A DNA stretch of 64,000 nucleotides from a phage: the sequence record PZ452582.1. One strand, given 5' to 3'. Made by a program: the position numbers and the translations under genes. The notes beneath the pieces were generated by a model, which saw only the letters and a list, made by a program, of their open reading frames with translations, searched no databases and was not told where the DNA came from. Shown piece after piece: positions 11,254 to 41,003 of this stretch. The first letter of the stretch is position 1; the number at the start of each line of letters is the position of its first letter.

Positions 11254-11547
11254 ATGAAAAAATTTATCTTTGCTGCAATTTTTGCTTTAGCTTCTTGTGC
11301 TGCTCAGCCTGCTATGGCAGGTTATGATAAAGATTTGTGTGAATGGTCTATGACTGCGGATCAGACTGAAGTTGAAACTCAAATTGAAGCGGATATTATG
11401 AATATCGTTGAGCGCGATCGTCCTGAAATGAAAGCTGAAGTGCAAAAACAGCTTAAGTCTGGTGGTGTAATGCAGTATAATTATGTTCTGTATTGCGATA
11501 AAAACTTTAATAACAAAAATATCGTAACCGAAATCACAGGTGAATAA
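11254..11547 (+). CDS. sp: Spackle (Sp) periplasmic protein, inhibitor of gp5 lysozyme
   Basis: 97 aa with cleavable signal peptide; matches T4 Sp length and position. Confidence 0.75.
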   Translation: MKKFIFAAIFALASCAAQPAMAGYDKDLCEWSMTADQTEVETQIEADIMNIVERDRPEMKAEVQKQLKSGGVMQYNYVLYCDKNFNNKNIVTEITGE

Positions 11548-11548
11548 T

Positions 11549-12181
11549 ATGATTTATTATATGCACAAAAATCCACCGTTTAAATACGGTAAATTTCCTG
11601 ATGCACAATGTTATAATATAACGCCTGATGAAAATAACCGTGGATATCTTATTGGCACAATTTTTGTAATTGTTAAAGATAACGAAATCGTTGCCTGGGC
11701 AGATTTTAAAGGTACAACACATGATGTTAATCCGGTGCCTTTCACATATTACAATATAATGGATTTGGCATATGATTATAATTGGTTTAATCATGACACG
11801 TTGGCTCATATTGAAGGTGTAGGATTTGACATCTCTTATTCTAGCTACTCATTGTGTCCTATGAGTCGGGCTCATAAAGAACCTGAATATTTTTCATTTA
11901 GGAAACGTGTAAACTTTAAACGCAACACAGAGTATGTCGGTGGAATATTTGTTAAAGATAATCGAATTATTCGTATTAATTATCCTTTGAGCGTTAGTCA
12001 AAAAGATATTGATGTTGATTTAGATTTCACTGAAAATAATATTAATCATATTGCTTCTGTGTATTTTGGTATCGATCACAAAATTGTAATATGTGGATAT
12101 GAATTACCGTTTGAAGAACAGCCTAAAGTAAATGTTTCTATTGATGACCAAATTTTTAATGCTTTTATGAATAAAGGTTAA
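11549..12181 (+). CDS. Hypothetical protein (T4 61.2 position)
   Basis: 210 aa from ATG 11549; C-terminus SIDDQIFNAFMNKG is shared with the next ORF. Confidence 0.55.
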   Translation: MIYYMHKNPPFKYGKFPDAQCYNITPDENNRGYLIGTIFVIVKDNEIVAWADFKGTTHDVNPVPFTYYNIMDLAYDYNWFNHDTLAHIEGVGFDISYSSYSLCPMSRAHKEPEYFSFRKRVNFKRNTEYVGGIFVKDNRIIRINYPLSVSQKDIDVDLDFTENNINHIASVYFGIDHKIVICGYELPFEEQPKVNVSIDDQIFNAFMNKG

Positions 12182-12185
12182 TATG
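12137..12185 (+). repeat. Direct repeat copy A (49 nt, one mismatch to copy B)
   Basis: TCTATTGATGACCAAATTTTTAATGCTTTTATGAATA[A/G]AGGTTAATATG occurs at 12137-12185 and 12495-12543. Confidence 0.9.
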
Positions 12186-12539
12186 TATAGTTCTGAATTT
12201 TCATATTTAAAAATGGAAAAAATTTCATACGATTTTATAGATGAAAAGGTTTATTACAGTTTCCATGAACCACGTTTTAATAGTGAGGTTGGGTTTATTG
12301 TAGTAAAAGACAATTTTATTTTAAAAATATATTCAGCATTAAAGGATTTTCATTACGAAAATATTAACCTAAAATTTAATAAAGAAAACGTTCGTAATTG
12401 CGCAGTAACAATTACGGGAAATAAAGGTACATGTGTTATGCTATCTGATGAAATTAATGATTTGCTAAATGATGCAGAAAATATTACTGCACCATCTATT
12501 GATGACCAAATTTTTAATGCTTTTATGAATAGAGGTTAA
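12183..12539 (+). CDS. Hypothetical protein sharing C-terminal tail with preceding ORF
   Basis: 118-aa ORF ending PSIDDQIFNAFMNRG; tightly packed TAATATG junctions. Confidence 0.5.
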   Translation: MYSSEFSYLKMEKISYDFIDEKVYYSFHEPRFNSEVGFIVVKDNFILKIYSALKDFHYENINLKFNKENVRNCAVTITGNKGTCVMLSDEINDLLNDAENITAPSIDDQIFNAFMNRG

Positions 12540-12543: not shown

Positions 12544-12705
12544 AAAACATATAAAGAATTTATCAAAGAAGATATGGTCGCTGGAGATTCAGGTGGTAGT
12601 CCTGAAAATATCTCTACTGGAACAACGTCAGGCGCTGTAGTAAATAAAGGTCCTGAACAGATTCCTAAAAAGAAAAAAGAGGAATCTAAAGAAAAAGAAG
12701 AGTAA
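12541..12705 (+). CDS. Small hydrophilic protein (54 aa; T4 61.1 position)
   Basis: ATG overlapping previous stop (TAATATG); ends 3 nt before gp61 start; Lys/Glu-rich C-terminus. Confidence 0.45.
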   Translation: MKTYKEFIKEDMVAGDSGGSPENISTGTTSGAVVNKGPEQIPKKKKEESKEKEE

Positions 12706-12708
12706 AGA

Positions 12709-13737
12709 ATGTCATCAATACCTTGGATTGATAATGAGTTTGCATACCGTGCATTAGCTCATTTACCTAAATTCACACAAGTAAATAATAGTTCAACTTT
12801 TAAATTACGGTTTAGATGCCCTGTTTGTGGAGATTCAAAAACCGACCAAAATAAAGCCCGTGGATGGTATTATGGTGATAATAATGAAGGAAATATTCAT
12901 TGTTATAACTGTAACTATCATGCACCAATCGGAATATATTTAAAGGAGTTTGAACCTGATTTATATCGTGAGTATATCTTTGAAATAAGAAAAGAAAAAG
13001 GTAAAAGTCGTCCAGTAGAAAAACCTAAAGAACTTCCTAAACAACTTGAGAAGAAAATAATTAAATCTCTTCCGTCATGTGTTAGATTAGATAAACTGGC
13101 GGAAGACCATCCAATTATAAAATATGTAAAAGCTCGTTGTATTCCAAAGGATAAATGGAAATATCTTTGGTTTACAACCGAATGGCCTAAATTAGTTAAT
13201 AGCATAGCACCGGGAACATATAAAAAGGAAATACCTGAGCCTCGTCTTGTTATTCCAATTTATAATGCTAATGGAAAAGCTGAGTCTTTTCAAGGACGTG
13301 CATTAAAGAAAGATGCTCCCCAAAAATATATCACCATCAAAGCTTATCCTGAAGCAACAAAAATCTATGGAGTCGAACGAGTTAAAGATGGTGATGTATA
13401 TGTTCTAGAAGGACCTATAGATTCACTTTTTATTGAAAATGGTATAGCTATTACGGGTGGTCAATTAGACCTAGAAGTTGTTCCATTTAAAGATAGACGT
13501 GTGTGGGTTTTAGATAATGAACCTCGTCATCCTGACACTATTAAGCGAATGACTAAATTAGTTGATGCAGGAGAAAGGGTTATGTTTTGGGATAAATCTC
13601 CCTGGAAATCAAAAGATGTTAATGATATGATTAGAAAGGAAGGTGCAACCCCTGAACAAATTATGGAATATATGAAAAATAATATTGCACAGGGGTTGAT
13701 GGCTAAAATGCGGCTATCTAAATATGCCAAGATTTAA
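12709..13737 (+). CDS. 61: gp61 DNA primase
   Basis: 342 aa, same as T4 gp61; zinc-ribbon CPVCGDS...CYNCNYH and TOPRIM region. Confidence 0.92.
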   Translation: MSSIPWIDNEFAYRALAHLPKFTQVNNSSTFKLRFRCPVCGDSKTDQNKARGWYYGDNNEGNIHCYNCNYHAPIGIYLKEFEPDLYREYIFEIRKEKGKSRPVEKPKELPKQLEKKIIKSLPSCVRLDKLAEDHPIIKYVKARCIPKDKWKYLWFTTEWPKLVNSIAPGTYKKEIPEPRLVIPIYNANGKAESFQGRALKKDAPQKYITIKAYPEATKIYGVERVKDGDVYVLEGPIDSLFIENGIAITGGQLDLEVVPFKDRRVWVLDNEPRHPDTIKRMTKLVDAGERVMFWDKSPWKSKDVNDMIRKEGATPEQIMEYMKNNIAQGLMAKMRLSKYAKI

Positions 13738-13934
13738 ATTAACCCAACTAAAGCAAATGCTAGATCTACGAATGTATCAAGAGTAACCACTGGAATATTA
13801 ATACCATGTGCAATTGCAATAGGTGATAGAATAAAGTTCCAGAGTAAAATTCCTACCATAGCAGAAATAGTAAAAGCTATACGTTTTTTATTACCTTTTA
13901 TGGCATTAACAAGTGCCATTAATTTTTGTACCAT
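13734..13934 (-). CDS. Small membrane protein on the opposite strand (66 aa)
   Basis: Strong SD AAAGGAGGA 3 nt before ATG on minus strand; hydrophobic; convergent with gene 61 and overlapping its stop. Confidence 0.45.
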   Translation of the reverse strand: MVQKLMALVNAIKGNKKRIAFTISAMVGILLWNFILSPIAIAHGINIPVVTLDTFVDLAFALVGLI

Positions 13935-13978
13935 ATGTCCTCCTTTAAATTAATATTTATCACAAATTTCATAAATTT

Positions 13979-14008
13979 GTTTACTTTCTCAGCTTGTTAT
14001 GGTATTAT
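13979..14008 (+). promoter_or_regulatory. T4-type early promoter
   Basis: GTTTAC at 13979-13984, TATTAT at 14003-14008, upstream of the 14034 ORF. Confidence 0.5.
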
Positions 14009-14033
14009 AAAATAAATTGCTGAGGATGATATA

Positions 14034-15373
<1,340 letters not shown>

Positions 15374-15433
15374 CTGCTTACATATTCAAATGATATAATT
15401 ATTTAACTTATTAATGAATTGAAAGGAAAAATA

Positions 15434-16146: not shown

Positions 16147-16352
16147 AATTTGATTTTTATGCATGGCAAAAAGCTGGGAGACCAGCTACTCGAGCATTTG
16201 GTTCTGATGGATATAATATTAGAGCCCATTGGAAATTTAATGCTCCAGAAGATTATTCTCCGGTAATTATTAACGGCGATGTTGTTATATTAACTAAAAT
16301 CGGGTATTTTAACGTTCCGCGAGAATTTATTATAAATAATCATGTAATTTAA
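16143..16352 (+). CDS. Hypothetical protein
   Basis: 69-aa ORF with ATGA overlap to the preceding ORF. Confidence 0.45.
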   Translation: MKFDFYAWQKAGRPATRAFGSDGYNIRAHWKFNAPEDYSPVIINGDVVILTKIGYFNVPREFIINNHVI

Positions 16353-17248: not shown

Positions 17249-17742
17249 GGAAAATTATGGAAGCAATTTTGTTTGAAATGTATATTAGCAGTAATAGCAT
17301 GTCGTTTGCTAAAGATGTTCCAATTACTGTAGCCGTAGTGATTGATAAGGGTTATTGTAACCCTATGTATCTCGTAGAAAATTTCGTTTCAATGCCAGTT
17401 CCAGAAGATGTTGAAATAAAACTTAAAAAGATCGGAATTATTGAAACTGTGCCAAATAGTCCGTTTAGAGCAATTGAAGCATTTACTAAATCCGAATACA
17501 TTAATGTTAGCGCAGAACAATATAATGGTAATCCTTTATCTTTTTATTCGTACGATTCAGTATATGACTGGAAAATAAATGAAGGAAATAAATTTATAAT
17601 TGCGAGTGAAGATGCTTTATCATACTTTATTTATTATGTATGGAATAATTTAAATCCAAAATTGCTAAAAATTCATGAATTTGACGATGCTCCTACTATT
17701 GTTTTAGGTAAAACAAATGAAAGTTCTGAAGAAAATGCTTGA
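17245..17742 (+). CDS. Hypothetical protein
   Basis: 165-aa ORF, ATGA coupling to previous ORF. Confidence 0.5.
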
Positions 17743-24516: not shown

Positions 24517-24954
24517 ATGATTAAAAATAATGCTGTTTATCAATTGAAAAAATTTGATGAAATTAAGAATTTTTCGGTACTGTCTAATACAGCTCATAAT
24601 AAGTTTTGTGAACTTCTTGGTTTAACTGGCGGATATCCTTTTACTGTTATTAGTGTTAATAGCGGAATTCTTATCGGTATGATGTATATTGAAATTAGAA
24701 ACTATTATGGAATGGTATCACCGCTTATTATTTATGAAAAAGATTTTAGTCTATTGATAGAAATTGAAAAACCTGAAGATCCAACTGATCTACTGTGTAA
24801 GGCAGTTTATATTCGTCGTCCATTCGCGAATCCTGTGGGTGGATGGGTGACTGATCAGTGGATTGAAGATGGTGTTGAACTTCTGAACGTAGTTCATGCT
24901 GGAGAGTACTCTGTAGTTCCTCGCAGCGCAGTGATTAATGTTCGTGTAAGCTAG
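24517..24954 (+). CDS. Hypothetical protein, paralog of next ORF (MotB-like region)
   Basis: 145 aa; C-terminal TDQWIEDGVELLNVV...VVP shared with the 25028 ORF. Confidence 0.5.
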   Translation: MIKNNAVYQLKKFDEIKNFSVLSNTAHNKFCELLGLTGGYPFTVISVNSGILIGMMYIEIRNYYGMVSPLIIYEKDFSLLIEIEKPEDPTDLLCKAVYIRRPFANPVGGWVTDQWIEDGVELLNVVHAGEYSVVPRSAVINVRVS

Positions 24955-26715: not shown

Positions 26716-27087
26716 ATGTTTAAAATCGGTAAGAAATATCGTATTCGCGAAGGCGAAGAAAAGAAATATCTAATGTCTGCTATTTATAGGAATGGTTCTA
26801 TTAATGCTGTAATATCTACAAGCGAATTTATCGTTGAAGATATGAAAGGTCATAATGTTACGATGATTAGTACAGCGTCTGGAAATAACGGAAAAATTCT
26901 TCACAGTATGCAGAGTAATGTTCTAATTTATGCTGAAGAATTTGACTTCTTCGAAGAAGTCACAGAAGATTTTGATTTTGAATGCACCATCACTATGAAA
27001 TCTGGTGACCCTCTTTCTTTTACAGTTAAAGATGAAAGAAGTCGCTTGAGAATTATTAGTCTTCTTCAAGCCATTAAATTTGAGTGA
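26716..27087 (+). CDS. Hypothetical protein
   Basis: 123 aa from ATG 26716. Confidence 0.45.
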   Translation: MFKIGKKYRIREGEEKKYLMSAIYRNGSINAVISTSEFIVEDMKGHNVTMISTASGNNGKILHSMQSNVLIYAEEFDFFEEVTEDFDFECTITMKSGDPLSFTVKDERSRLRIISLLQAIKFE

Positions 27088-40346: not shown

Positions 40347-41003
40347 TTATTTAGCCCTTCCTAATATTCTGGCCGCCTGAGCACATATTGATTCAAGGCG
40401 GTCATTACTTATATGATCATTTCTATACCAGTACATGGTTATCGTTCCAGCATAGATATTATCCAAATTAAAATATGGACAACTGTACATGTAGTTTATT
40501 TCGGGAGTAGGCTTTTTAGTTGGTAAAAAAGCAAATTTTGAGTCAGAATAATAATGACGTCCATTTAAATGAACTGCATATTCATCCATAGTTTTATCAA
40601 CAGGATATCCTCCAAGTGATTTTTCAGTTATTGTTGAAGGTAATCTTCCTTCGTATGCTATAATATCAACAAAATAGTTTAAGTTTTTAGGGCGGAAAGA
40701 ATACACCGCACTAAAGTCTGCCTCAGATGATATATGAACTATCTGGAGTTGTTCCAGGGCGACAGATTCAAAGCGTGCATTTCTTTCCTTTTCAATAATT
40801 TCACTGTATGTTTCATACTTTGATTGCTTATAGTACTCAAAGAAACTATCTCCCCTATACCAAACAATCGCCATCATAAATAAAAGAATTACGACAGCTA
40901 CCCGGGAAGCAAGAACTTTCCCGGTAGCGTTATCTTTGAACAAGCGATCTAGAACACCAAATAGAATATCAGAGGGCGAAAATGATATTCTAGGTGCTGC
41001 CAT
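40347..41003 (-). CDS. t: Holin gpt
   Basis: 218 aa, same as T4 holin T; single N-terminal TM then large periplasmic domain; downstream of gene 38. Confidence 0.9.
   Translation of the reverse strand: MAAPRISFSPSDILFGVLDRLFKDNATGKVLASRVAVVILLFMMAIVWYRGDSFFEYYKQSKYETYSEIIEKERNARFESVALEQLQIVHISSEADFSAVYSFRPKNLNYFVDIIAYEGRLPSTITEKSLGGYPVDKTMDEYAVHLNGRHYYSDSKFAFLPTKKPTPEINYMYSCPYFNLDNIYAGTITMYWYRNDHISNDRLESICAQAARILGRAK

Follow-up and report, generated by a model that had tools for sequence, protein, structure and literature searches.

The T4 late promoter is TATAAATA, located at positions -13 to -6, and -13 is its least conserved position in T4-like phages (PMC1524935). Two late genes offer the closest comparison with the locus described here. 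The first, soc, encodes a capsid decoration protein and is driven by a late promoter among early genes, with TATAAATA upstream of it at 16332 in the 64,000-nucleotide stretch of phage DNA analyzed here (record PZ452582.1; hereafter, the window). The second, the holin gene t, has the arrangement AATAAATA-N19-ATG with AAGGAGG as its Shine-Dalgarno (SD) sequence. Its product (40347-41003, minus strand, 218 residues) is a late inner-membrane protein with a large periplasmic domain. The early region that interests us also gives rise to T4 Imm and Sp, which are likewise small envelope proteins of T-even phages and whose genes are early genes on the early strand. Among small holin families, phrog_11161, phrog_3427 and PF11351 comprise proteins of similar size with hydrophobic helices. 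Finally, PHROG 2024 is a catalogued, uncharacterised family (RB69ORF029w, fPS-65 g034, JB75_0238) whose members share the size of the ORF under study and its position convergent with gene 61; we found no difference between them and the ORF, which is an uncharacterised representative of a familiar class, the small phage membrane proteins.

The window comes from a Tequatrovirus (T4-like) genome; over 12700-15400 it shares 98.9% identity with Yersinia phage fPS-65. An earlier note on this DNA had proposed that a 66-codon ORF starting with ATG lies on the minus strand, that a near-consensus SD sequence precedes it by 3 nt, and that its 3' end overlaps the stop of gene 61. The ORF read-out and the sequence bear out all three statements. 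Four nucleotides (13734-13737) are common to both genes, and the stop codons interlock, that of the ORF occupying 13736-13734 on the minus strand and that of gene 61 occupying 13735-13737. The locus comprises the following features.

12709..13737, plus strand: gene 61 (DNA primase), convergent with the ORF.
13734..13934, minus strand: coding sequence of the ORF, 66 aa, PHROG 2024 family, identified by ORF read-out, profile, alignment and structure model.
13900..13929, plus strand: terminator-like hairpin followed by a T-run, for the gene 61 transcript; an annotated terminator in phage fPS-65.
13938..13946, minus strand: Shine-Dalgarno sequence AAAGGAGGA; every lineage examined retains GGAG(G).
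13954..13961, minus strand: putative late promoter GATAAATA, a 7/8 match to TATAAATA.
13980..14008, plus strand: early-type sigma-70 promoter (TTTACT-17-TATTAT with TG), for a 186-aa ORF and dam.

Read on the minus strand, the order upstream of the ORF is GATAAATA-TTAATTT-AAAGGAGGA-CAT-ATG. The hairpin and the early-type promoter are both annotated in related records, and the promoter bounds the slot of the ORF on the right. The ORF is not embedded in an early operon, as had been proposed, but sits between the gene 61 hairpin and the promoter of the next genes, outside any operon. All ORFs of at least 100 aa in 174-39052 are on the plus strand, and beyond them minus-strand genes begin at 40347. 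The claim that this is the only opposite-strand gene for more than 25 kb on either side therefore holds to the right (26.4 kb), whereas to the left the window gives 13.7 kb only.

A 66-codon open frame alone is unremarkable at this locus: on the minus strand of 1-39052, 24 ATGs are followed by at least 66 open codons, versus 7 in shuffled sequences. What sets this ORF apart is its upstream region. It is the only one of those 24 frames with a GGAGG-type SD sequence (0.015 expected from the shuffles), and the only one with ATAAATA upstream, a combination of frame and motif found in none of 200 shuffles. Of the minus-strand ORFs of at least 40 aa in the whole 64-kb window, only three have a GGAGG-type SD sequence, namely this ORF, gene t and an internal site.

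The earlier note had proposed a homologue search and held that lack of conservation would tell against the ORF; profile and tblastn searches showed that the gene is conserved in related phages. The protein matches the PHROG 2024 profile with an E value of 1.4e-31 (residues 2 to 66 against profile positions 1 to 65 of 65), as do all 18 aligned relatives. By tblastn, 695 phage records were matched, 687 of them near full length, and the intact gene is present in about 690 phage records belonging to at least six Tevenvirinae genera. Protein identity by tblastn is 89 to 100% in Tequatrovirus, including T4 (97%), and 49 to 57% in Mosigvirus and Gaprivervirus; T2 and RB68, both Tequatrovirus, also carry the gene. 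Dhakavirus, Kanagawavirus and T4-like phages of Klebsiella, Salmonella, Citrobacter, Edwardsiella and Kosakonia carry a second subfamily that has diverged further. All genomes inspected have the gene convergent with gene 61, usually overlapping the gene 61 stop, and the flank opposite gene 61 varies, being occupied by dam, the 186-aa ORF or gene 56. The family is nevertheless narrow, as a profile search of 1.84 billion representative proteins returned only 20 clusters.

Nonsynonymous change is below synonymous change in all pairwise comparisons. Close pairs have dN/dS values of 0.05 to 0.22, and in distant pairs pN is 0.19 to 0.57 against a near-saturated pS of 0.59 to 0.88, with the frame still open. 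Sequence comparison thus shows a gene under purifying selection that keeps the same place, convergent with gene 61, in the T4-like phages of Enterobacterales, and the ORF is almost certainly a real protein-coding gene.

Two observations concern unusual arrangements of the gene. VR26-type phages carry two diverged tandem copies, one of each subfamily (VR26 locus, 1495-1901), the second of which has its own SD sequence and no promoter box; in SP18 (1495-1800) only the first copy is present, and about 100 nt without an open frame replace the second. In the window, the hairpin at 13900-13929 on the plus strand is encoded within codons 6 to 12 of the ORF (residues M-A-L-V-N-A-I). This dual use of hairpin and codons occurs in Tequatrovirus only, and we therefore rejected selection on the terminator hairpin as the cause of the conservation of the ORF.

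The gene is already annotated, as hypothetical or in similar terms, in RB69 (ORF029w), T2, RB68, fPS-65 (g034) and JB75 (JB75_0238, "putative membrane protein"), and hundreds of relatives likewise carry it as a hypothetical gene. It is without annotation in the T4 RefSeq record NC_000866 and in MT984581, where the ORF falls within the 309-bp gap between dam and 61. Literature searches found no published description of the ORF.

We compared the region upstream of the ORF among lineages. Between genera, the DNA 5' of the ATG is unalignable except for the SD sequence and an ATAAATA heptamer, which is present 12 to 21 nt upstream of the ATG in all nine lineages. The complete box reads TATAAATA in IME523 and CIP9, AATAAATA in RB69 and JS10, CATAAATA in VR26, SP18 and Roth68, and GATAAATA in T4 and the window; in the window the base at -13 is G rather than the usual T or A, a point against the late reading. 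The upstream comparison revealed no conserved early or middle promoter for the ORF. One weak sigma-70-like site is present on the minus strand at 14053-14026, within DNA that is deleted in T4. Relative to the window, T4 lacks 548 bp (13959-14506), and the junction lies approximately at the upstream edge of GATAAATA, so that T4 keeps the box and the ORF despite wholly different DNA further upstream. Tolerance of this deletion fits what would be expected of a promoter that needs no upstream element.

Because ATAAATA is the sole conserved upstream element besides the SD sequence, the ORF most likely lies outside the early programme, and its upstream sequence indicates that it is probably a late gene. 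Late transcription is where the locus resembles soc and t. Like soc, the ORF appears to be driven by a late promoter among early genes, but it lies on the opposite strand and its predicted product is a membrane protein. With t, the ORF shares an identical spacing between box and ATG, and both products would be late inner-membrane proteins. The two proteins differ in length, and a family-profile search of all window ORFs detected no similarity between them.

In the proposed course of events, RNA polymerase bearing gp55, the late sigma factor of the phage, would initiate about 6 nt downstream of the NATAAATA box, near 13948, and the resulting leader of about 14 nt would have the strong SD sequence almost at its 5' end. 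A scan of 334 nt of the minus strand past the ORF detected no terminator-like site, so the transcript may run on antisense into gene 61. An Rfam scan of 13500-14150 on both strands returned chance-level matches only. Antisense starts have been described in T4: a dRNA-seq study gives 150 phage start sites, 22 of which are antisense (bioRxiv 10.1101/2024.04.04.588121).

ATAAATA is underrepresented in the window, with 16 copies on both strands versus 39 ± 6 expected from shuffled sequences, which suggests selection against stray late promoters. Several of these copies are located just 5' of known late genes, namely soc, t, gene 34 and another tail-fibre gene. Three further minus-strand copies in the early region have no ORF behind them (17628-17634, 24729-24735 and 26781-26787); from their sequence, they may be starts of late antisense RNAs.

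The description of the product as a small hydrophobic membrane protein agrees with its hydropathy and with the helices of a structure model. The first 18 to 22 residues carry +4 to +8 charges, the main helix (residues ~19 to 42) has a hydropathy of 2.0 to 2.5, and the remainder past that helix is acidic or neutral. AlphaFold2, run with the family alignment, predicted helices at residues 2-12, 16-42 and 52-63 (pLDDT 81). In 18 diverse members W32, N33, P38 and A40 are invariant, and G44, L47, P48 and G64 are nearly so. The long helix carries the W-N and P.A pairs in its outer half; next come a G-x3-P-x-V-x-L-(D/E) loop and a 12-residue helix. The loop from G44 to P48 is short and Pro-rich, the C-terminal helix opens with an acidic residue, and the C terminus is hydrophobic (…LAFALVGLI), the charges being at the N terminus. 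There is neither a lipobox nor a signal peptide. The product is very likely a small inner-membrane protein. Its basic N terminus would remain in the cytoplasm while the single helix ~19-42 crosses the membrane, placing the conserved W-N...P.A...G...P..(D/E) core, made of the outer helix half and the loop, at the periplasmic face. The final ~15 residues might lie as a helix at the membrane interface or lead back as the second arm of a hairpin.

Searches for function by similarity gave few leads. Pfam and NCBIfam had no match at or above threshold for the protein and its relatives, PDB sequence searches with the protein found no match, and a fold search against viral models returned members of its own family only. 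PADLOC had no match for the window protein or its T4-like relatives; a distant member gave a single match to a '4TM effector', at noise level (E = 0.006). When all window ORFs, those of the Imm region among them, were searched by profile and by BLAST, no paralogue or relative was detected.

Distant relatives are found in siphovirus-type prophages and metagenomic contigs, in late tail or lysis regions. Their neighbours are a tail-tip gene, endonuclease VII and a T4-lysozyme-like endolysin, or else the gene lies at the cargo end of a prophage, beside RelA/SpoT-like genes. These late and accessory settings agree with late expression and do not fix the function. When the siphovirus-type relatives were compared with isolated phages by tblastn, no match was obtained.

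Two recurrent arrangements were observed among these relatives. In siphovirus-type contigs the gene stays beside a gene for a ~180-aa phrog_1924 'minor tail protein' (37 to 59% identical between contigs) and one for a ~105-aa protein, in an order that differs (contig L017, 8001-9123; L015, 8001-9082; L030, 6024-7177; L022, 10001-11089), and the trio may be a three-gene module. The conserved neighbours there are thus putative minor tail and ~105-aa proteins rather than lysis genes, and the window contains no homologue of either partner gene. In the remnants of Raoultella-type prophages, 16 nt separate the homologue from a RelA/SpoT-domain gene directly after it (L013, 129-1383; L020, 10001-10811; L021, 2125-2860); in one genome this pair persists between transposases, the rest of the prophage being gone.

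Our tentative explanation, which we hold with less than even confidence, is that the product, made late and dispensable for the phage, works at the periplasmic face of the inner membrane, where it tunes the timing of lysis or envelope events. The lead to such a role comes from the distant relatives located near T4-lysozyme-like endolysins and from weak matches to holin profiles. Late in infection, the protein would act at that face through helix contacts involving its buried Asn, a residue which in membrane helices suggests association. It might self-associate or bind a partner, and as a non-essential accessory would most likely tune the timing of holin-dependent lysis. Against this reading, the holin matches are no better than spurious ones, the conserved neighbours in siphovirus-type relatives are not lysis genes, and the dam-61 interval of T4 is not known to harbour a lysis or r mutant. 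We consider doubtful the bolder version in which T4 and nearly all enterobacterial T4-like phages possess an overlooked late gene for a missing player in the envelope events that end infection, be it a modulator of holin T or of lysis inhibition, or a second pore former, from a mobile family shared with siphovirus-type prophages.

An unlikely alternative is an accessory for exclusion, lysis inhibition or anti-defence, which would block the entry of secondary phage DNA, sense superinfection or neutralise a membrane defence. A small, membrane-bound and apparently non-essential protein would suit such a task, as would its fast divergence between genera (49 to 57% identity) and the diverged tandem paralogues of VR26-type phages; prophage copies, moreover, occupy the accessory end, where they adjoin att and lie beside RelA/SpoT-like and other cargo genes. 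However, the sole conserved signal of the ORF is a late promoter, whereas imm and sp are early, the searches of the window ORFs, Imm region included, and of PADLOC yielded no relative, and the protein has no lipobox or signal peptide. The earlier suggestion of a superinfection-exclusion or lysis-inhibition factor belonging to the early programme thus found no support, the only conserved element being the late core ATAAATA and homology being absent from these searches.

Less probable still is a small holin- or pinholin-like pore former, acting as a second, cryptic hole former beside holin T. The size of the protein, its transmembrane helix with a polar Asn and its strong late signals laid out as in t are all compatible with such a role, and some members match phrog_3427 (5e-4), phrog_11161 (8e-4) and PF11351 (GTA_holin_3TM; 0.03 to 0.1), over the same profile region in each matching member. 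All these matches are below threshold, however, the best one to PF11351 reaching 15 bits (E = 0.03) against a cutoff of 24.8, and a plainly spurious match to an MFS exporter scores on par with them (1e-3). No link to PF11351 emerged from the searches either: one that started from P0130, the distant member that matched best, retrieved nothing but that protein, and the 55 matches of the family-alignment search included none that carried PF11351. We therefore rejected holin homology as evidence, as it is no better than false matches between membrane segments, and retained it as a lead only. Some database records label the gene a holin, but these labels are unreviewed predictions. The protein has no significant match to a curated holin family and lacks, beyond its transmembrane helix, the charged C-terminal tail that holins typically have. 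Nor could it replace T, since T4 t mutants do not lyse. As to genomic position, the gene adjoins the primase gene in T4-like phages and lies within 1 to 2 kb of T4-lysozyme-like genes in distant relatives, one of which heads a block ending in an endolysin without a signal sequence; the t and e genes of T4 are also apart from each other.

We regard as improbable that the protein is a membrane-bound helper of tail or head morphogenesis. Adjacency to the phrog_1924 and ~105-aa genes, by a tail-tip gene, in siphovirus-type genomes would agree with this role, as would late expression, presumably shared with structural genes, but both partner genes are without homologue in the window, the gene of T4-like phages is far from the structural modules, and the adjacency may reflect common descent of the prophages. 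It is very improbable that the ORF is a non-functional frame, whether a side effect of conserved terminator and promoter sequences or just the leader of an antisense RNA, made late, that would silence gene 61: although long antisense frames are numerous (24 on the minus strand), the ORF overlaps the terminator hairpin, a late transcript would enter gene 61 antisense and the T4 RefSeq annotation omits it, the frame is open at near-saturated synonymous sites with pN below pS in every pair, the conserved residues form a protein motif and not a DNA motif, the hairpin is confined to one genus while the strong SD sequence is conserved, and relatives occur in unrelated genomic contexts.

Should the late inner-membrane factor that we tentatively favour act on the timing of lysis, on lysis inhibition or on exclusion, a very well-studied phage pathway would gain a component; if it has no such effect, it would be another conserved small membrane protein. 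In practical terms, what matters most is the absence of the gene from the T4 reference annotation. As T4 is the reference for the whole phage group, adding it would correct a model genome. More generally, a late-promoter core together with a strong ribosome-binding site can reveal real small genes on the wrong strand in early regions.

The neighbouring genes deserve mention. The 186-aa ORF upstream of dam (14034-14594, plus strand; phrog_8706), the stop of which overlaps the dam start, had been described as PD-(D/E)xK-like. This is consistent with weak, subthreshold matches to DpnII and BanI (E = 0.004 and 0.009, respectively) and with a D...E-I-K motif in the protein, for which no PDB sequence match was obtained. 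The ORF is missing from T4 owing to the 548-bp deletion, and its last 88 nt are kept there (T4 locus L003, 2627-2712). Judging from its sequence, it could be the relic of a GATC restriction-modification pair beside the phage Dam methylase. On the other side, at the position of gene 61.2, two plus-strand ORFs (11540-12181, 213 aa, and 12183-12539, 118 aa) end in SIDDQIFNAFMNKG and SIDDQIFNAFMNRG, respectively. The near identity of these last 13 residues suggests a partial duplication or a split gene.
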